Positions 7,684-64,000 are shown, numbered from the stretch's first letter. The stretch: DNA of 64,000 nt from an uncultured delta proteobacterium (GCA_963708515.1 CAVPSX010000012.1:409185-473184), one strand, 5' to 3'. Numbers and translations: made by a program. Notes: generated by a model from the letters alone, not told the origin.

Positions 7684-8941
7684 CGATGGCTTCCCGGTAA
7701 ACGTCCACCGTTTTCAGGGCGGCGTGCCGCCAGGTAAAAGCGTTTTCCACACGGCGCAGTCCGGCCTGCCCGAGTTCATGTCTTTTTTCCGGATGATCCA
7801 GCAGGTAAAGGATCGCCGCTTCGAGGGCGCCCGTATCGCCCGGCGGGACGATGACGCCGGCGTCGCCGACCACTTCCGGCAGAGCGCCGCCCGATGTGCT
7901 GATCACGGGCGTCCCGCAGGCCATGGCCTCGCCGGCGGGCATGCCGAATCCTTCGTACAGCGACGGAATCACCGCCAGGGTGGCCTCCGCGTAATAACGG
8001 GCAAAGTCCCTGTATGCAATGCGTCCGGTAAACCGCAGGGCGCCGTTGAAGCCCAGGTCCCGGGCAAGACGTTCGATCACGCCGTTTTTCTTGGGGGCGC
8101 CGATGACAGTCAGCCGGACATCGCGCTGCTTCCGGATGGAGGCGACCGCCTCAAGCAGGTAGCGCAGACCTTTCAGGGGGGTGTCGGCGCTGTTGGTGGC
8201 CAGCAATTGATTGTCCGCCCTTTTAATGTCGGGCAGCGGATAAAAGAAATCCGTGTTGATCCCGTTGGGAACCACGCGGAAACGATCTTCGGAGACGCCG
8301 AAATCCTTGCTGATGTCCCGTTTTGAACATTCAGACACGGTGATGATGCGCGCCAGACGTCGCGTCACGCGCTTCTGCATGCCCAGAAAAGAATACCAGC
8401 GTCTCACTTTGAGCCTCTTGAGCAAAGACGGCGCTGCGTCCAGTTCCGCATCCCGGTCCACCGTCACGGGATGATGAATCGTGGCCATTGCGGGATATCC
8501 GATCCGGGAGAGATCTGCAATGCCGTAAGCCAGACATTGGTTGTCATGAACAATATCATAGGCCGGTCTTGTCGTACGAAAATATTGGTTGACCCTCATC
8601 CCGAAGGTCAGCGGTTCCGGAAAACCGCCCAGGCACATGCTGAGAAATTCCAGTTGATTCACGGGCGAAGCAAGATCCCGCCAGCGGGCGGGCCTGAAGA
8701 GGTGATCCGGGTTGTACAGATCCAGCCCAGGCAGTTTATGCAGCCCTATATCCGCAGCCAGCTCGGGGTAAGGCGGACCGGAGACGACACTCACCTCATG
8801 TCCCAGGTCTCTTAACGCCCGGCTCAGATACTTGATATAAACGCCCTGCCCACCCGAGGTGGGATTGCCGCGATAGGTCAGCAGGCATATTTTCAACGCA
8901 CTTTGAGGCGATTTTTTCTTACCGTTAGCCTTGACGACCAT
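7670..8941 (-). CDS. glycosyltransferase family 4 (GT-B)
   Basis: N-terminal GGQGVYIKYLSRAL and C-terminal EGFGMPAGEAMACGTPVI (E-x7-E type). Start is uncertain (ATG 8941 or TTG 8965, neither with a clear RBS). Confidence 0.8.
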   Translation of the reverse strand: MVVKANGKKKSPQSALKICLLTYRGNPTSGGQGVYIKYLSRALRDLGHEVSVVSGPPYPELAADIGLHKLPGLDLYNPDHLFRPARWRDLASPVNQLEFLSMCLGGFPEPLTFGMRVNQYFRTTRPAYDIVHDNQCLAYGIADLSRIGYPAMATIHHPVTVDRDAELDAAPSLLKRLKVRRWYSFLGMQKRVTRRLARIITVSECSKRDISKDFGVSEDRFRVVPNGINTDFFYPLPDIKRADNQLLATNSADTPLKGLRYLLEAVASIRKQRDVRLTVIGAPKKNGVIERLARDLGFNGALRFTGRIAYRDFARYYAEATLAVIPSLYEGFGMPAGEAMACGTPVISTSGGALPEVVGDAGVIVPPGDTGALEAAILYLLDHPEKRHELGQAGLRRVENAFTWRHAALKTVDVYREAIDAHR

Positions 8942-8984
8942 TTTGACAAACTCGTAAAAAATCAAAAAATTAGCCTAAAATGAC

Positions 8985-9098
8985 GGCTTCATAAAAAGCT
9001 CCGCAGGCAAGGCGCTCAAATCCTGGGGAAAGGCGTACTCAGGCATACGCCGCAATGACAAAAGATGCGGCGCAATGCAGCATCCGGACTTTTTTTAC
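8985..9098 (-). repeat. family-2 palindromic intergenic element, copy Y
   Basis: The reverse complement aligns position-for-position with 63041-63148 (GTAAAAA..GTCC..ATGCTGC.TTGCGC..CATC....GTCATTGCGGCGTA.GC...AGTACGCCT...GCGCCTTGCCT..GG.GCTTT). It has terminal inverted repeats and an A-run/T-run. Confidence 0.85.
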
Positions 9099-9751
9099 GC
9101 AGGCGTCAATATCTTCCGGATCAACGTCTCCGAATTGCCGAACATCGCCTCAATTTCCAGCGCCGCGAGGCCGGCGCCCAGGGCAACCTTCCGGGCCATT
9201 TCCAGGGAAATGAAGTCTTGAGGGCTGTGGGCGTCCGTATTGAGAACGAGTGAGGCGCCGCACTGCCTCGCCAGCATGGCCACATGTCCGTTGCTCAGGC
9301 TGTGTCCCTTGCGGGCCGTAATCTCCAGGCAGATGCCTCTTTCAGCCGCAAGCCGGACTTCCTGTTCCGTGATCAGACCGGGATGCGCCAGGATGTCGAC
9401 CGACGCTGCGATGGCGGCGGCATTGGTCCCGCTCGCCACCGGCTCCACAATCGTTTCTCCATGCACAAGCACCAGTTTCGCCCCCAGTTCTCTGGCGGCC
9501 ACGGCCAGTCCGTTGATCAGCGCCGGCGGCACATGCGTGAGCTCGATTCCCGGGATAACTTGAATATCATAAGCTTTCGACAAGCTCTGACAAACCCCGG
9601 CCACGCGGGGGATAATAAAATCCAGATTTGACGCATCACCGTGATCGGTAATGGCAATGGCCCGATAACCGGCGTGCCTGGCGCGCCGGACCAGTTCCGA
9701 CGGGATCAGTTCACCGTCGCTGAAGAGGCAGTGGGTATGCAGATCAATCAC
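9095..9751 (-). CDS. PHP-domain metal-dependent phosphoesterase
   Basis: IDLHTHCLFSDG and AITDHGD motifs. GTG at 9751 is preceded by AAGGAGG at 7 nt; the ORF track start at 9784 is a TTG without an RBS. Confidence 0.8.
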   Translation of the reverse strand: MIDLHTHCLFSDGELIPSELVRRARHAGYRAIAITDHGDASNLDFIIPRVAGVCQSLSKAYDIQVIPGIELTHVPPALINGLAVAARELGAKLVLVHGETIVEPVASGTNAAAIAASVDILAHPGLITEQEVRLAAERGICLEITARKGHSLSNGHVAMLARQCGASLVLNTDAHSPQDFISLEMARKVALGAGLAALEIEAMFGNSETLIRKILTPA

Positions 9752-20469: not shown

Positions 20470-20572
20470 CGTTGGGTCTCCTTTCATGCCGCGCAACCTT
20501 GCCATTGTTCGCCGGTTGCTGCAAGCGGAAAAATAATAAAGTCGTTGCCGAATAAGAGATATTTGCATAACC

Positions 20573-20592
20573 GGTGAAAAATGGTTCGCAAG
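20573..20592 (+). repeat. family-1 element, left-end remnant
   Basis: GGTGAAAAATGGTTCGCAAG matches the left terminus of the full copies. Similarity is lost after this point. Confidence 0.5.
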
Positions 20593-20718
20593 AGGCATGG
20601 CGCGCAGCGTGATATGGACTTGAGGAGAGTTGTTTTGCGTGATATAGGGGGCATCGTTTCTGATAAGCCAAGCTTGACGACAAAAGATAGGCCTGGTTTT
20701 AGAAAAGGAGCTCGAACG

Positions 20719-22427: not shown

Positions 22428-22514
22428 ATTATCCGGCTTATCGTAGCACGGCAACAGATTGTTTTTCGGAATTCAAAGCCTATATCCCGAACCAGCGACA
22501 AATGGTTTGATAGG

Positions 22515-22540
22515 GGGCGGCAATGTCCGCCCGTTTACTT
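22515..22540 (+). terminator. candidate short hairpin/attenuator ~85-100 nt downstream of the promoter
   Basis: GGGCGG-caatgt-CCGCCC followed by GTTTACTTTA. The U-tract is interrupted, so this is weak. Confidence 0.3.
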
Positions 22541-28495: not shown

Positions 28496-28685
28496 GAGGG
28501 CTTTGCCTGACCGCTGAAAAATGGTTCGCAAGCAACGAATGAAAGATTTTTCGTTGATGGGGACACGACTCCGTCAAGCCCCCTCCCCATGACTCATTTA
28601 TTGATTTCAAGCATGTTTATGCCTTAACATATTTCAAGCGAAATAGATTGTGAGCCGCGGGCGTTGTCCATTTTTCCAAGGTCTC
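28496..28685 (+). repeat. family-1 palindromic intergenic element, copy A
   Basis: Shares the left arm CTGAAAAATGGTTCGCAAG..GAATGAAAGATTTTTCG, the centre TTTATTGATTTCAA and the right arm GCGAAA.AGATTGTGAGCCGCGGGCG..CCATTTTTCCAAGGTCTC with copies B-D. It has an extra internal GC hairpin (ATGGGGA...CTCCCCAT). Confidence 0.85.
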
Positions 28686-33887: not shown

Positions 33888-33912
33888 AATCGATGCTCAG
33901 CCGGATTATTCA

Positions 33913-34066
33913 AGATCTTGGAAAAATGGTTCGCAAGCGGTGAATGAAAGATTTTTCGCAGTTCCATTAATTTGACTAATTTATTGATTTCGGACATTTT
34001 TTAAGCAACATCTTATTTCATGCGAAAAAGATTTTGAACCGCGGCGAAGCCATTTTTCAAAGATCT
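33913..34066 (+). repeat. family-1 palindromic intergenic element, copy B (best-preserved)
   Basis: Terminal inverted repeat AGATCTTGGAAAAATGG / CCATTTTTCAAAGATCT. The arms GGTTCGCAAGCGGTGAATGAAAGATTTTTCGC and GCGAAAAAGATTTTGAACCGCGGCGAAGCC are imperfectly complementary. Confidence 0.9.
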
Positions 34067-34069
34067 CTT

Positions 34070-35236
34070 TCACACGGCTCTCAATGCATCCACGATCTTC
34101 ATGCGGGATGCCCGCAGAGCCGGCAGCGCTCCTCCCAAAAGCCCCATGATCAGTGAAAACCCCAAGGCCTGCCAGACAATATCAAACGTCAGCGTAAAAC
34201 TAAATGCCAGCTCGGAAAAGGTCTGGAAGTTCATGGTGGAAACCGTAAAGAGCTGCATAAAGGTAGCGAAAAACAGGCCCGCGCAACCGCCGAAAAAGCC
34301 CAGCAGCAGGGACTCCATGAGGAAGGCCAGCAGGATGCTGCGCCGCTGAAATCCCAGCGCCCGCAGCGTCCCGATCTCGCCCGTGCGGTTGGATACGGCA
34401 GCATACATGGTGATCATGGCACCGATGATGGCCCCCAGAGAAAAAATCACGGTCAGTGAAAGACCCATGATGCGCAGAAAGGTCGCCATCATTTCCGACT
34501 GGTCCCGGTAATAGCGGGTCTCACGCTTGGCTTCCACCGTGAGTCGCGGATCCGTTTCGAGGCGGGATTTGACCGCAGGAAACTTTTGCGTATTACTTAA
34601 GCGAAAAATCACGGACGAATAGACCGGCCGCCTGAACGCCTGCATCATCTGGTCAACGTCTCCCCATATCTCCGAATTGAAACCGGTATTGCCGGCATCA
34701 AATATGCCGACAATGCGCCACTCCCGCATCCCGAAACGCAGCGTCTCTCCAAGACCGCCCCCCTTAAACCGTTGCGCGATACTGAGCCCTGCCATGATTT
34801 CCGCCGATCCCATCCGGGGAAAGCGACCCTCGATGAGCCGGATCTGCGGACGCAGGGAAACAGACGCCGGGGCCATCCCGCGGATCACGACATTGGCCGG
34901 CTTGTCCCGGTCGCGTTTCGGCAGGCTGATCAGAACGACGACTTCCTTGGCGACGAGTTTGTCGCCTGACGAACCGGCGGCAATTTCCCGCTCCGTTTCA
35001 ATGATCGACGCCTGCTGCCTGTCCAGACCGCTCTGAACTTCCGACACCGACCCTTTGCGGATGACCACGACATTGTCCGGCGATCCCGTTTCGACCAGAG
35101 TCTGCCGGAGTCCCGCGGCCAGCATCAGGATGGCGGCAAAGACAAAGACGACCAGCGCCATGCCACCGGCCGTCAGAATCGTGGTCAGCCGCCGGGCCCA
35201 GAGGTTTCTGAAACTGTATGCAAAGGGAATGGCCAT
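34070..35236 (-). CDS. ABC transporter permease (FtsX/MacB-type)
   Basis: N-terminal TM segment, large periplasmic domain and a C-terminal 3-TM FtsX domain ending ...RASRMKIVDALRAV. Confidence 0.85.
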   Translation of the reverse strand: MAIPFAYSFRNLWARRLTTILTAGGMALVVFVFAAILMLAAGLRQTLVETGSPDNVVVIRKGSVSEVQSGLDRQQASIIETEREIAAGSSGDKLVAKEVVVLISLPKRDRDKPANVVIRGMAPASVSLRPQIRLIEGRFPRMGSAEIMAGLSIAQRFKGGGLGETLRFGMREWRIVGIFDAGNTGFNSEIWGDVDQMMQAFRRPVYSSVIFRLSNTQKFPAVKSRLETDPRLTVEAKRETRYYRDQSEMMATFLRIMGLSLTVIFSLGAIIGAMITMYAAVSNRTGEIGTLRALGFQRRSILLAFLMESLLLGFFGGCAGLFFATFMQLFTVSTMNFQTFSELAFSFTLTFDIVWQALGFSLIMGLLGGALPALRASRMKIVDALRAV

Positions 35237-38331: not shown

Positions 38332-38725
38332 CGCTTTTTGATAGGTTGATCAACACCCGTGAAAAAAGGCTTCGTCCAAGCCTCAACCATGTTGAATGGC
38401 ATACCGTTAACGTCGCCTTTGGAAAGGTAGAAAATATTTGCATCGCCGCTTGCGAGCGCTTTTCTTCGGTTATGCAAAACCGTCAATGATCATGGCGCGG
38501 ATTCTCGACGATTACACGTGATTTGTCAAACAAATATCAAAGGCGTCTTTGACAGGCGTATTGCCATACACTCCCGCCCAGAGGATAAGCAATTTACTCT
38601 CATAAATATCAAATTATAGCTGCCTTCACTCCCGCAACAAAACATGCATGTATTTTTAACCAAATACACATTTTTCAAAGGGTATTCGGCAAACAAATAT
38701 ATTGACAAAACAGAAAGATTGTTTC

Positions 38726-43242: not shown

Positions 43243-43407
43243 ATGCCCACTTACGACTATCAGTGCCAGGACTGCAAACGGAAATTCTCCGTGACGCACC
43301 GCATCTCCGACCACGACAAGGCGAAGGTCGTTTGTCCGAAGTGCAAAAGCCGGAAGGTCAAACAGCAAATTTCTCTATTTATCACGAAAACCAGCCGCAA
43401 AAGTTAA
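43243..43407 (+). CDS. FmdB-family zinc-ribbon protein
   Basis: 54-aa ORF, too short for the ORF track: MPTYDYQCQDC...VVCPKCKS (CxxC-N21-CxxC) with an AGGAG RBS. Confidence 0.8.
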   Translation: MPTYDYQCQDCKRKFSVTHRISDHDKAKVVCPKCKSRKVKQQISLFITKTSRKS

Positions 43408-43413
43408 CGATTT

Positions 43414-43547
43414 GGTAAAAAAGTCAGAGACCTCTCTTCGCATTGCGCCTCAGCCGAATGTCGCTGCGGTGTATACAAAGTGATGTTCACCCGGTCCATG
43501 CGCACTTCCTAAAAGAGAGACTCCTGCTTTTTTGACGGAAGTCCATC
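43414..43547 (+). repeat. family-2 palindromic intergenic element, copy Z (divergent)
   Basis: Starts GTAAAAAAGTC. The core GCATTGCGCCTCAGCCGAATGTCGCTGCGGTGTATACAAAGT aligns with copies X and Y. Ends are inverted (AAAAAAGTCAGAGACCTCTCTT / AAGAGAGACTCCTGCTTTTTT). Confidence 0.65.
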
Positions 43548-46421: not shown

Positions 46422-46588
46422 GAGAGCTTTGCATGACCGCTGATAAATGGTTCGCACGCGGCGAATCAAAGATTTTTCGACTTTCCAGGAATAAGACTAA
46501 TTCACCGATTTCAACAGGATTTAGACCTTATCCTAATTTCTTGCGAAAAAGATTTTGAGCCGCGGTGAAGCCATTGATCAGCAATCTC
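46422..46588 (+). repeat. family-1 palindromic intergenic element, copy C
   Basis: GAGAGCTTTGCATGACCGCTGATAAATGGTTCGCACGCGGCGAATCAAAGATTTTTCG ... GACTAATTCACCGATTTCAA ... GCGAAAAAGATTTTGAGCCGCGGTGAAGCCATTGATCAGCAATCTC. Confidence 0.85.
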
Positions 46589-46692
46589 ATTTTATGATAC
46601 CCAAAGCCGCAGATATAATCAACGATTGGTTTTTGAAGGTGCGTATGCTATGAATCACAAGGATTATTTCATGTATCAATATGGAATGAGTC

Positions 46693-49600: not shown

Positions 49601-49982
49601 CGGGCAGGACTCCTTCGGGAGCCTCCTGATCGGCCGTGATCAGGGGTGGGCGTATCTACCCGTCACAAATGCCGCAGCCGTTCTGCAGCAGCTATTAACA
49701 CTGTATTGGAAGGGATTGTCTGTGCCGCTCAAGTTCTTTCCGGACGCTTCATGGACATACGCGGAGCAGAGGCTTGAAAACGGAAAGACAATAACCGAGG
49801 CCTTGCGTATGGCACGGCCGCTCTGGACGGGCTCCGACTACAGACGCGGCGAATCGAAAGATCGTTACTACCGACGCTGTTTCGGGGAACAGGATCCCCT
49901 CGACGAGGAATTCGAGCAACTGTCGGTGCTGGTTTATGAACCGTTGATGAAACACAGAACGAGTGCTTTGCATGGCCGCTGA
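46693..49982 (+). pseudogene. recC: exodeoxyribonuclease V gamma subunit (RecC), N-terminus displaced by a frameshift in a C5 run (46778-46782)
   Basis: MAVFKRYAGNRLGLLADRLAECIRTPLSSP (frame 1) followed by LAPEIIIVQSKGMERWLSMELARRHGICANIRLPFP (frame 0) reconstitutes the canonical RecC N-terminus. One extra C would restore the frame. Confidence 0.85.
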
Positions 49983-49985
49983 AAA

Positions 49986-52900
49986 ATGACTCCCTTTGAT
50001 CTTCTAAAGAGCCCGTTGCAGGGCACCCATCTCATCGAGGCCGGCGCCGGCACGGGAAAAACCTATGCCATCGCCGGTCTCTACATCCGCCTCATCCTCG
50101 AAAGGGCAATTCCGGTGAGGGAGATTCTTGTGGTCACTTTCACCCTGGCGGCCACGGCCGAGCTGAAAGACCGCATCCGCCGCAAGCTCCGGGACACCCT
50201 CGATGCATTTTTGCAGGAGGACAGCAAAGATGCTTTTCTACAGGCGCTCATCCGTACCTTCCCGCATCCCGCTCTGCGAAAAGAGGCCTGCGAGCGCCTT
50301 CGCGCCGCTCTCCGGGATTTCGATGAAGCCGCCATCTTCACCATTCACGGCTTTTGCCGGCGTATGCTCCACGAACATGCCTTTGAAAGCGGAGCCCTTT
50401 TTGACACCGAACTTGTGCCGGATCAGCGCCGGTTGAAAGAAGAAATTGTCCGGGATTTCTGGCGGACGCATTTCTACGGGACCCTGCCCGAACTCATCGG
50501 ATATGCCATGAGTCAGGGCTTCACGCCCGCTTCATTGGTCAGGCAGGTGGAGAATATCGCCTTGAATCCCGATATCCGTGTCCTGCCCGAAGGCGAACCT
50601 ACTTCCATCGACATCATCCGGAAGTCCCTCGCTGCTTTCTACGCGATGGTTGCGGAATTGCAGGCCATCTGGACGTCGGTACGGGAAGAGGTCCGTCAAA
50701 AGCTTCAGGATCCGGCCCTCAAAGCCAATATTTACGGCCCGAAGACGGCAAACCGTCTCGTAGACGCCATGGATGAGTGGCTGGCCGCGAGAGAATTCCA
50801 GCCCTTCATGGATTTTGAGAAAATGACCCCTGAGAGGATCGCAAAAGCCGTCCGGAAAAACACAAACCCTCCGGAACATCCGGTATTCGCGATCTGCCAA
50901 GCGCTTCTGGAGAAAGCCGACGATCTGCGCCGGGAGCTGGATCAATATTTGCTTTTTTTAAAAACCGCTCTCATCAGGATGCTCAGGACTGAACTGCCTG
51001 CCCGCAAGCAGAAACAGAACATTCTGTTTTATGACGACCTGCTCGTCAGGTTGAGAGACGCGCTCGAAAAAGAGGGAGGCGGCGCACTCGCAACCGTGAT
51101 TGGCAATCAATTCAAAGCCGCCCTGATCGACGAATTCCAAGATACCGATCCAATTCAGTATGCTATTTTTCATACCGTTTTCGGCGGGGAAGACCACACC
51201 CTTTTTCTGATCGGCGATCCCAAACAGGCCATTTACAGCTTCCGCGGCGCCGATATTTTTGCCTATATGCAGGCGGCAGGCGACGTCGGGACGGGCCATA
51301 CCCTCGATCGGAACTGGCGGTCGGAACCGGGCCTCATTGAGGCTGTCAATGCCCTGTTTTCCAGGCCCGGCAACCCCTTCGTGTACGGGGATATTTCCTT
51401 TCGTCCTGCAGAAGCCGCCCCGATGGTCGGGCGCAAGATTCTAACTATCGACGGGAAACAGCCTTCCCCCCTGGAATGGTGGTTCATCCCGGCCGTCTTG
51501 TTCACGCAATCAGACAAACCCCTGCCAAAAGAGACAGCCCGGCGATTCATCGCCGACGCCGTAGCGGCGGAAATATCGCATCTCATTCGCCTGGGGCGCG
51601 AGCATCGCGCCATGATCGGACAAAGTCCGCTTGATGAGAGCGATATGGCCGTGCTGGTGCGCACGAATCGGGAAGCCGGGCTGATCCAGCGGGCCTTGCA
51701 GAACCTCCGGATTCCCAGCGTCCTTACCAGCGAGGAAAACGTCTTCGATTCCCATGAAGCAGGCGAACTCCTGCAGGTATTGCAGGGAATTGCATGGCCC
51801 GCCCGTGAAAATCTCGTACGCGGCGCTCTGGCGACGGACATGCTGGGCGCGGGCCCAGGCGCCCTTGATCAATGGCTGCACGACGACGACGGCTGGTCGG
51901 CCCGTCTGGAAACATTCAGACAGGATCACGAATTATGGAAAACACGGGGCTTCATGCGGATGTTCCGGACCCTGACCCTCAGAGAGGGCGTGCGGAGCCG
52001 TCTGCTGTCCTTTCCGGACGGCGAACGCCGCCTGACAAACCTTCTGCATCTAACAGAGATCCTCCATGAGGAATCCCAATCCCGGAACCTGGACAATGAC
52101 CGGCTGTTGCAGTGGCTGGCGGAGCAACTGTCCGGCAAGGGGCGGGAAGACCGGGACGAGCACCTCCTGCGCCTGGAAAGCGACTCCCGCGCGGTGAAGA
52201 TCCTGACCATCCACAAGAGCAAGGGACTCGAGTACCCGGTTGTCTTCTGTCCATTTGCCTGGGGATCGTCGCGCATTGCCAGAGGACCTTTTTATTTTCA
52301 TGATGAAAGCCGCAATCGGGAGTTGACGCTCGAACTCGGGCCTGCGAACCAGAGCGCGCACAAGCTCTCAGCGGAAAGGGAACGGCTGGCCGAAAACTGC
52401 CGTCTTCTCTATGTGGCGCTGACGCGGGCGAAACACCGCTGTTATTTCCTGTGGGGACACATCAATGAAACGGGCAGTTCCGCACCGGCCTATCTCTTCC
52501 ACGGGGCGAAAGCGGATATCCATCCAGACTGCGGGGAAGGTACCGTTGACGTCCTGGAAAAACACGTGGGAGCAATGTCGGATCAGGACATGCACAGCGA
52601 TTTGGAGCGTATCACGGCAGACAGCGGCGGAACGATCCGGTTGCGGGAGCTTCCCAAAACGCCGGGCATCCCCGTGCCGCCGCGCGTGGACGCTTTCGAA
52701 GTAATCGCCTGCCGGACATTCAAGGGACGTATTGATCCATCCTGGAAAGTGGCCAGCTATTCGCTGCTTGTTTCCAGCCCCTCCACACTGATGGACCTGC
52801 CGGACCGGGATGCGGCTTTGTCTCCGGCGCCATCATATTCACCCAACCTTCATACCCCTTCTCCTGCCTTCCCCGGGCGGGAGGACAGGACGGAAGGGGA

Positions 52901-56562: not shown

Positions 56563-56718
56563 GAGACCTCTGAACAATGGGCCACGCCGGCAATTAAATA
56601 ATTTTTCGCTGAGCCGAATATCACACCTCAATCATGACGGATTTCAAACTTTCAAGTTTATCTCTGAAGAGGTAAAATACTTGATTTGCCGCTTACGTAC
56701 CATTTTTCAGCGGGTCTG
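56563..56718 (+). repeat. family-1 palindromic intergenic element, copy D (degenerate)
   Basis: GAGACCTCTGAACAATGGGCCACGCCGGCAATTAAATAATTTTTCG ... GACGGATTTCAAAC ... TTGATTTGCCGCTTACGTACCATTTTTCAGCGGGTCTG aligns with copies A-C. Confidence 0.7.
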
Positions 56719-62999: not shown

Positions 63000-63040
63000 G
63001 ATAGAATGTTAATCCAAACGGGATTAACTCTGACGACTTC

Positions 63041-63190
63041 GTAAAAAGTCCATATGCTGCGTTGCGCTTCATCCATCGTCATTGCGGCGTACGCAAAAGT
63101 ACGCCTCATTCCTCATGATTCGCGCGCCTTGCCTCTGGCGCTTTGTTACGCAGCCGTCCCAGATTCAAGACTTTGCTGTTTTTTCGCAGC
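63041..63190 (+). repeat. family-2 palindromic intergenic element, copy X
   Basis: Aligns with the reverse complement of 8985-9098. Contains an internal perfect hairpin GGCGTAC-GCAAAA-GTACGCC, the outer pairing GCTGCGT/ACGCAGC and a partially duplicated 3' end followed by TTTTTT. Confidence 0.85.
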
Positions 63191-63192
63191 CG

Positions 63193-64000
63193 TTAACTTT
63201 TGATATCAATTTTTATATCGGCCAGCGCCAGGCCAAGGTTCGACCCCACGTTCTCACGGTTATTAAGATAGGAAACAGCAGGCGGCGCCTCATGCGGGGA
63301 CGGAGCTTCCAGCTCTTTGATGCTCAACCGGATCTTTCTGTTTTTAAGATCCACATTCTTGACCAAAGCCGAAACCAGGTCCCCCACCGCGAACAGATCC
63401 GAAGAGGCCTTGACGCGCTTCTGGCTGATCTCGGAAATGTGGACCAACCCCTCAATCCCTTCTTCCAGCTCGATGAAAATTCCAAAATCAGTTAAATTTG
63501 TGACTTTCCCGCTGACGACGGTTCCAACGGCATATTTCTGGTCCAGCCCATCCCATGGATTTTTCTCAATCTGCTTGACGCCGAGAGAAAACTTCTCGCT
63601 TGCCACATCGATATTTAATACCATGGCTTCGATTTCCTGGCCCTTTTTGAACAGTTCCGAGGGATGCTTGACGCGGTGTCTCCAGGAAATATCGGACATG
63701 TGGATCAACCCGTCAATCCCATCCTCTACGCCGACAAAGATGCCGAAATTGGTAATATTCCGAATGACCCCCTTGATAATCGTCCCTTCGGGATACTTGT
63801 TTTTAAGGGTTTCCCAAGGGTTCAGTGTGGTTTGTTTGAGTCCCAGCGAGATACGCTTAGAAGCCGCATTGACCTCTAATACCATCACGTTAACCCGGTC
63901 GTCGACATTCAGCACCTTGGAGGGATGTCTCATCTCGCGCGTCCAGAACATCTCGGAGATATGGATCAAACCTTCCACGCCCGATTCAAGTTCCACAAAT
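63193..64000 (-). CDS. rpsA: 30S ribosomal protein S1 (C-terminal part; gene continues beyond the window)
   Basis: Three tandem S1 domains (G.V.....FG.F..L..G..GL.H.SE pattern). The ORF is open to the window edge. Confidence 0.9.
   Translation of the reverse strand, partial: FVELESGVEGLIHISEMFWTREMRHPSKVLNVDDRVNVMVLEVNAASKRISLGLKQTTLNPWETLKNKYPEGTIIKGVIRNITNFGIFVGVEDGIDGLIHMSDISWRHRVKHPSELFKKGQEIEAMVLNIDVASEKFSLGVKQIEKNPWDGLDQKYAVGTVVSGKVTNLTDFGIFIELEEGIEGLVHISEISQKRVKASSDLFAVGDLVSALVKNVDLKNRKIRLSIKELEAPSPHEAPPAVSYLNNRENVGSNLGLALADIKIDIKS

Follow-up and report, generated by a model that had tools for sequence, protein, structure and literature searches.

The palindromic repeat described here, found in a 64,000-nucleotide stretch of DNA from an uncultured delta proteobacterium (the whole stretch is termed the window), very probably belongs to a family of MITE-type non-autonomous transposons that insert at gene ends in sulfate-reducing and syntrophic bacteria. 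The elements are short and non-coding, carry terminal inverted repeats and copy-specific target duplications, occur as dispersed copies and are missing from orthologous sites in relatives; of these MITE features, copy 1 lacks the target duplication. The combination of terminal inverted repeats, a 5-6-bp duplication, multiple copies and empty sites marks the family as a MITE rather than a REP. The preliminary description had spoken, among other readings, of a dispersed REP/MITE-like element, and this half of it is strongly supported in its MITE form.

Two copies in the window share the same sequence, as had been noted before. Copy 1 on the minus strand (8980-9109) aligns with copy 2 on the plus strand (63030-63160) over 130 nt with 78% identity (blastn, E 4.7e-24), and the halves of both copies were recovered by a repeat finder as the inverted-repeat pairs I1 and I4 (81%). 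At that level, neither nhmmer nor a covariance model with filters off found anything beyond these two copies in the 64-kb window. The full element of copy 1 spans positions 8945-9108 of the minus strand (164 nt) and consists of the repeat U1, a palindromic core, U2, a spacer and U3. It sits between a PHP-family hydrolase gene and a GT4 glycosyltransferase gene, and scores 111 bits against the family HMM and 101.7 bits (E 4e-23) against the family covariance model. Copy 2 spans positions 63032-63194 of the plus strand (163 nt); it lies in the rpsA-sppA spacer, runs antisense to both genes and has scores of 130.5 bits and 133.8 bits (E 4e-31), respectively. It is nearer to copies of other genomes (89%) than to copy 1.

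The third site, at 43405-43543 on the plus strand, begins at the TAA stop of a gene for a 54-aa zinc-ribbon (FmdB-like) protein. It has inverted ends of its own, with no recognisable U3 and no duplication. It gave no blastn match to copies 1 and 2, no match to an HMM built from these two, and only 9.7 bits (E 3.8) with the family covariance model. Its left half matches positions 4-74 of an HMM built from 96 copies of other genomes (nhmmer, E 2e-4), its local alignment to the consensus reaches a score of 51, about 7 sd above that of shuffles (20.9 ± 4.1), and it has in common with the family the junction ...AAAAGT/TAACG at the stop codon. Copy 3 is thus a degenerate or distant relative of marginal membership, and of the three copies claimed earlier two stand firmly. 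A candidate fourth copy at 2171-2277 (18 bits with the covariance model) lies inside a 734-aa ORF and is a chance match. The earlier statement that the copies are intergenic and lie at gene ends is true of all three sites, whose neighbours were identified by Pfam (PHP, GT4, Zn_ribbon_8, Peptidase_S49 and S1).

The anatomy of the element was derived from 100 copies lined up with their flanks. The left end is the terminal repeat U1, (T)GACGGCTTCGTAAAAAGTC, which begins 10-11 nt before the GTAAAAA that had been taken as the start of the element; the true start is (T)GACG. U1 is followed by an imperfect palindromic core of ~95 nt, at whose apex we found the previously reported hairpin GGCGTAC-loop-GTACGCC, and then by an inverted copy of the repeat, U2 (GCTTTTTACGAAGCCGTC), which pairs with U1 over the full length of both. 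A second inverted copy, U3 (GACTTTTTACGAGGTCGTC), follows 3-23 nt beyond U2 in 69 of the 100 copies. The element therefore does not end at the complementary arm, as first described, and runs about 40 nt further to this third terminal repeat; the T-run reported after the arm is present, with only about 4 T and no adjoining G+C-rich stem. The family thus has terminal inverted repeats of 19-20 bp, (T)GACGGCTTCGTAAAAAGTC on the left and GACTTTTTACGAGGTCGTC on the right; the consensus of U1 and the reverse complement of U3 (GACGACCTCGTAAAAAGTC) are identical at 17 of 19 positions, and the motif of the ends can be written GACGRCYTCGTAAAAAG. The window copies measure 163-164 nt and those of other genomes 165-200 nt; the G+C content of the element is ~55%. 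Longer variants have extra modules within the core (as in L021 and L013), including a 25-nt hairpin.

In copy 1, U1 (TGACGCCTGCGTAAAAAAAG) lies at 9089-9108, the internal inverted repeat U2 that pairs with it (GCTTTTTATGAAGCCGTC) at 8982-8999 and the outer right terminal repeat U3 (GATTTTTTACGAGTTTGTC) at 8945-8963, all on the minus strand. In copy 2, U2 (GCTTTGTTACGCAGCCGTC) lies at 63140-63158 and a degenerate U3 (CTGTTTTTTCGCAGCCGTT) at 63176-63194, both on the plus strand. The element is non-coding: an open frame, MLRCASSFVIAAYAKVRLIPQDSRALPAELFTKPS, runs through many copies, but it has 1-nt indels in the apex loop and an in-frame stop in copy 1, and is not conserved as coding sequence.

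The same ends also occur on elements with unrelated interiors, namely one of ~135 nt (L044 4925-5060) and one of ~90 nt (L017 937-1030), as is expected if one transposase mobilises several MITE families. Several other arrangements of the ends were observed. At L013 495-530 a bare U-U hairpin lacks the core, and at L130 2249-2470 a 40-nt unit of U2 and spacer is duplicated in tandem, giving four copies of the terminal repeat in total. At L028 2430-2490 a perfect 44-nt palindrome (GACTTTTTACGAGGTCGTC-AACTTT-GACGACCTCGTAAAAAGTC) is found, made of a right end and a solo left end with the hexamer AACTTT between them, and at L046 289-308 another left end stands alone with AAAGTT before it. The insertions of copy 2, copy 3 and L130 are flanked by this hexamer too, as AAAGTT or as AACTTT on the other strand.

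A record of insertion is preserved at the rpsA-sppA junction. Relatives of the window's SppA were drawn from metagenomes, and the four closest with an informative junction (L163, L129, L131 and L132; SppA identities of 96, 90, 86 and 80% among the four) have an element-free rpsA-sppA spacer of 25 nt that contains a single AAAGTT and reads ...ATCAAAAGTTAATCC... These empty sites set both boundaries of copy 2. In the reverse complement of L163 the empty allele has the single ...GGATTAACTTTTGA..., whereas the filled allele of the window has AACTCT (63026-63031) and AACTTT (63195-63200) around the element on the plus strand, that is, AAAGTT and AGAGTT in the direction of rpsA. A different sub-family member occupies the same hexamer in L130 (SppA 88%), in the opposite orientation and with a perfect AAAGTT duplication, so that the two flanking hexamers match at six of six positions there and at five of six in copy 2. 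Since empty alleles lie in between, it is more parsimonious to assume that the element inserted twice independently than that a single insertion was followed by an inversion and several precise losses. The rpsA stop codon of the window (63193-63195, minus strand) consists of one duplicated base and the last two bases of the element; rebuilt from the duplicated T and element bases, it reads TAA in the window and TGA in L130. The comparison of orthologous loci proposed in the preliminary description therefore gave presence in the window and L130, and absence in the four other relatives.

The PHP-glycosyltransferase junction is likewise polymorphic: L209 lacks an element there, whereas the window, L210 and L211 all carry one. 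The boundaries of copy 1 were set from the family anatomy together with the empty allele of L209 against the filled alleles of L210 and L211. Between the two junctions, L209 has 30 nt that are absent from the filled alleles, and copy 1 has no clean duplication (GATATT versus AAAATG). About 30 nt of the empty allele have thus been replaced by copy 1, which is not a simple insertion. The insertion of copy 1 is older than that of copy 2, and its right junction, GTTTGTC/AAAATGG, is also found in L210. At the left end, U1 encodes the last four codons of the PHP protein (L-T-P-A) and its TAA stop (9095-9097), which lies inside the GTAAAAA of the element, exactly as had been pointed out. Most PHP relatives end in ...ILNQQGY, whereas the proteins of the window, P0005 and P0008 end in ...ILTPA or ...ILTPS, a translated U1. 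At the right end, U3 stops 3 nt short of an ATG (8941-8939) of the glycosyltransferase gene. In this region (8939-8965) the ORF list starts the gene at a TTG at 8965, within the element; the empty allele of L209 indicates that the ATG is the true start and that the extension MIFYEFVK is an artefact of the insertion.

A target duplication is found across the family. Among the 61 copies whose U3 is recognisable, 37 repeat the 5 nt of the left flank right after U3; this repeat has a fixed register, with its end exactly 11 nt past ...ACGAG, and 5 is its commonest length. By a looser test it is present in 47 of 100 copies, compared to 8% for mismatched pairs of left and right flanks. Its bases also vary together: where the first base of the repeat is T in place of the usual A, the right copy has T too (4 of 4), and where the T of TGACGG is replaced, the right flank shows the same base in four of seven cases. 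Because positions 0 and +1 co-vary between the junctions, the duplication is most likely 6 bp (ANNNNT), and the reconstructed target logo, TC[ANNNNT]GA, is a loose palindrome. About 40% of the copies with a U3 have no exact duplication.

The earlier reservation that no further copies might exist in other parts of the genome is clearly contradicted. A degenerate core pattern that includes an exact 20-nt core was scanned over one genome per species and matched at least 118 stretches; nhmmer on 8-kb blocks around the matches listed gave about 150 non-overlapping copies, about 100 of them full-length, an ascertainment that is biased toward young and conserved members. Among the matches listed, the MAGs with copies number more than 40 and belong to Syntrophales, Smithellaceae and Desulfobacterales, nearly all being labelled Syntrophus, Smithella, Smithellaceae, Syntrophaceae, Syntrophales, Desulfobacterales, Desulfobacteraceae or 'Deltaproteobacteria'. 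The richest MAG has at least 11 loci among these matches, and the window has two, possibly three, copies in 64 kb. The mean identity of copies is 90% within a genome and 81% between genomes, which indicates that the family was amplified within genomes. No blastn match was found in plasmid and phage collections.

Gene context was assessed with crude longest-ORF gene calls around about 140 copies. Copies between co-directional genes lie in the sense (31 copies) or antisense (24 copies) orientation; 23 lie between convergent and 12 between divergent genes, and a further 29 near block edges fall outside these classes. Another 20 copies were called inside an ORF, almost all of them through upstream extension of a neighbouring ORF along the one open frame of the element. 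As the element carries a TGA at position 1 and a TAA at position 12, two of the three incoming frames stop at once. The spacers before insertion, as preserved in relatives, measure 25 nt at the copy 2 site and 16 nt at the copy 1 site, and both sites look like operon-internal junctions.

These features suggest how the elements might move. A transposase encoded elsewhere would bind the repeated ends, cut a loosely palindromic TC[ANNNNT]GA with a 5-6-bp stagger and leave a duplicated ANNNNT hexamer upon repair. We infer a DDE-type transposase acting in trans, to which the repeated subterminal sites, the 5-6-bp stagger and the palindromic target are a fit. The targets are A+T-rich sites at gene ends, where an insertion at the stop codon, or a few codons before it, exchanges one stop for another (TGA at +1, TAA at +12) and is hence tolerated; the rebuilt rpsA stop at copy 2 and the change of the PHP C-terminus from NQQGY to TPA at copy 1 are examples. 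The transcript of an operon that has received a copy would include it whichever way round it lies, and the copy should then form a long, imperfect hairpin of ~60 bp, which may alter mRNA processing, stability or translational coupling without being a dedicated terminator. By analogy with ERIC or Correia elements, the family may thus affect its host at the RNA level.

A search for an autonomous partner in the window and in ~1.2 Mb of fetched DNA found no gene enclosed by paired U ends or by other long inverted repeats. A search for U(+)...U(-) pairs 400-7800 bp apart returned only L018 1125-2588, from a Desulfobulbus MAG, which was rejected as a parent and has no duplication. Here a left-half and a right-half partial copy flank a 277-aa gene on the opposite strand, and the locus could be a composite or two truncated neighbouring copies. 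Relaxed U pairs combined with matching hexamers gave two chance matches, and generic inverted 11-mers combined with a duplication gave chance matches only.

Both strands of the consensus fold into a single long, imperfect hairpin, with -63.7 kcal/mol in the sense and -66.6 kcal/mol in the antisense direction; copy 1 folds with -43.5 (z -2.2) and copy 2 with -44.1 kcal/mol (z -4.0). The preliminary description had recommended testing the family for covariation, and across 82 copies compensatory change has indeed preserved the pairing: substitutions on both sides are seen in 23 pairs, compared to 10.8 ± 1.7 in shuffles. The compensatory cells number 135 versus 33.4 ± 4.6 in shuffles, a value reached in 0 of 500 shuffles, with slid controls at no more than 36; sub-family structure inflates these counts, although the excess is nonetheless large. 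Whole internal helices may differ as well: in a Desulfobacterales sub-family TTTCGTTGTC...GACACGAAA replaces ATCCT...AGGAT at the same position. Palindromy over the whole length together with covariation is more than a transposase that binds only the ends would need, and counts against the MITE reading.

One alternative is an exapted mobile element, derived from a MITE, whose core hairpin is selected at the level of the host or the family, for instance because it binds a protein or acts as a regulatory RNA module. We consider it unlikely. Besides the exchanged helices, it draws on the core itself, whose segments outside the search pattern agree with the consensus at 93% across orders, compared to 90% for the terminal repeats, and on the orthologous pair L071/L077, which has 0 substitutions in 66 nt of the centre while the terminal repeats decay (arms 4/25 and 5/32) and the flanks differ by about 10%. 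However, such constraint is seen in this one orthologous pair only. The pair of copy 1 and L210 is without it, with an element identity of 81-87% against 86% in the flanking coding DNA. The core conservation is also inflated by ascertainment through the core pattern, and the same picture would result if copies had undergone gene conversion or had recently spread horizontally; gene conversion or ascertainment bias would explain the extra conservation equally well.

A bolder proposal combines this idea with the transposon. The family and the small elements that share its ends would be moved by a novel, highly site-selective lineage of Thermodesulfobacteriota transposases that returns to the same stop-codon hexamer in either orientation, with the central hairpin as a selected, host-co-opted module for protein binding or RNA processing at operon junctions such as rpsA-sppA. 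We offer it tentatively and hold it to be improbable.

The other half of the preliminary description, that the element looks like a long bidirectional terminator or a structured RNA that stabilises mRNA, fares worse. Such an RNA, kept at gene ends for a need of the host, would be consistent with the strong folding of the consensus on both strands (-64 and -67 kcal/mol) and of copy 2, with the compensatory changes, with the position of copies beside stop codons and with the unchanged central 66 nt of L071/L077. We nevertheless regard it as distinctly improbable, and a dedicated terminator is not supported by the data. A terminator scan found 0 sites at copy 1 and, at copy 2, two weak 5-bp stems only, on the non-coding strand antisense to rpsA and sppA; an intrinsic terminator, with a G+C-rich stem-loop and an immediate U-tract oriented with the upstream gene, was not seen at either copy. 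Elements occur in both orientations inside tight operons, with near-equal numbers between co-directional genes, and close relatives lack the element at the same junctions, with operon-type spacers of 16-25 nt. Copy 1 and its ortholog in L210 have diverged as fast as the flanking coding DNA. A strand-specific RNA is also not favoured by the mismatch counts (88 G-T against 97 A-C, one fixed pair set aside), which show no strand asymmetry and hence do not separate an RNA, a single-stranded DNA or a symmetric protein-binding-site role of the hairpin. Rfam 15 gave 0 matches at gathering thresholds over the window, and with E up to 10 noise only (13-16 bits versus thresholds of 39-113); the match to a known Rfam family that would have refuted the preliminary description was thus not found.

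A REP/BIME-type element, moved by a RAYT (an IS200/IS605-like tyrosine transposase) or another single-strand, hairpin-dependent system instead of a DDE enzyme, has in our view only a slight chance of being correct. It would suit the palindromy and covariation over the whole length, the mosaic make-up from a short unit that recurs with alternating orientation (U1, U2 and U3) and the bare U-U hairpins such as that of L013. Yet the unit has about 165 nt rather than 20-40 nt, the symmetry of the palindromic target is that expected of a staggered double-strand cut, and an unsystematic look at gene content revealed no RAYT-like gene beside any copy. Moreover, the site-specific 5-6-bp duplication is unlike REP and IS200/IS605 insertions, which to our knowledge have no target duplication. 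Insertion by a tyrosine recombinase at attP/attB-like sites was rejected as the main model because the target, which does resemble the joined ends, has an 'overlap' that varies by site and is duplicated. An integron attC site was dismissed by inspection, as the copies lie 34-54 kb apart and not in arrays, and the ends are TGACGG...CGTCA rather than RYYYAAC...GTTRRRY.

As a MITE, the family is new and of a well-known kind. It shares with the Correia/NEMIS (Neisseria), RUP (Streptococcus pneumoniae) and Nezha (cyanobacteria) elements a size of 100-250 bp, the lack of coding capacity, terminal inverted repeats, a short target duplication, many intergenic copies that are present or absent between relatives, and a long hairpin of the whole element when transcribed (features of bacterial MITEs reviewed in PMC3184786). 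It differs from them in its unrelated sequence, its Thermodesulfobacteriota hosts, the 5-6-bp ANNNNT duplication, the extra internal copy of the right end and the lack of a known cognate insertion sequence. In the searched literature we found a single described 'deltaproteobacterial' MITE, the Chunjie element of Geobacter uraniireducens Rf4, which is also the nearest one described from this branch of the tree. It is 178-235 bp long and A+T-rich, with 21-bp terminal inverted repeats and 9-bp direct repeats, is mostly intergenic, leaves intact an operon into which it has inserted and folds into very stable hairpins (PMC3184786, PMC10969869). By this description the present family stands apart, with a 5-6-bp instead of a 9-bp duplication and about 55% G+C instead of an A+T-rich sequence; Geobacter genomes are absent from the at least 118 matches listed. 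The 'multicopy nucleotide sequences' of Geobacter (Aklujkar et al.) are palindromic and non-randomly placed in many intergenic regions (PMC2996986), and thus alike in palindromy and multicopy intergenic siting; the U and core motifs do not occur in the supplementary alignments of that paper (the Geobacter bemidjiensis repeat supplements). In the searched literature at large, these motifs were not found, the motif strings appearing only in unrelated primer lists, and no paper linking MITEs to Syntrophus was found.

ERIC/IRU elements are imperfect palindromes of about 127 bp that occupy transcribed intergenic regions, in either orientation, in fairly distant genera of Enterobacteriaceae, and work as RNA hairpins inside operon transcripts. 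Compared to this description, the present family belongs to another taxon, has clear terminal repeats past the palindrome and shows demonstrable recent insertions. ERIC/IRU has also been listed as a MITE (PMC3184786).

The finding opens or closes no long-standing question; the points of interest are the breadth of the family across Thermodesulfobacteriota, the recurrent insertion at one stop-codon hexamer and the missing transposase. It places a hairpin of ~60 bp in conserved operon junctions of poorly studied syntrophic anaerobes. For annotation, the elements bring spurious N-terminal extensions and rewritten C-termini, as in the element-encoded LTPA end of PHP and the rpsA stop made from element bases. 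They break short-read assemblies of Syntrophales and Desulfobacterales MAGs, which accounts for several Logan contigs with the window's sppA that stop ~106 nt upstream of sppA, inside copy 2. Recently mobile and variable between lineages, the insertions are usable strain markers. The copies are also recombination substrates, with one duplication boundary lying inside a copy. In MAG UML_B.mb.18, the loci L044 5850-6254 (reverse strand) and L027 3500-3985 have 100-nt left flanks that are 99% identical and share the first ~75 nt of the element, then diverge inside it and continue into unrelated right flanks. From the sequence, this looks like a breakpoint of duplication or rearrangement arising from recombination between two copies.

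The window also holds a second, unrelated family of palindromic repeats ('family 1', ...TTTGCATGACCGCTGAAAAATGGTTCGCAAGCGGCGAATGAAAGATTTTTCG...CGAAAAAGATTTTGAGCCGCGGCGAAGCCATTTTTC), with at least eight copies: 20556-20597, 22477-22517, 28496-28660, 33901-34070, 46422-46591 and 49961-50001 on the plus strand, and 38420-38463 and 56674-56718 on the minus strand. Full copies are ~170 nt long and form a long hairpin (-50 kcal/mol for 33901-34075). A perfect 25-nt hairpin, GGGGACACGACTCTGTCATGTCCCC, is nested both in a family-1 copy of the window (28559-28583) and in longer variants of the MITE family, and was located at L210 1745-1769, at L020 7373-7397 and 6034-6058, and in L026, L059, L062, L084, L090 and L115. 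Judging from its occurrence in these unrelated repeat families, it may be a still smaller mobile module common to them.
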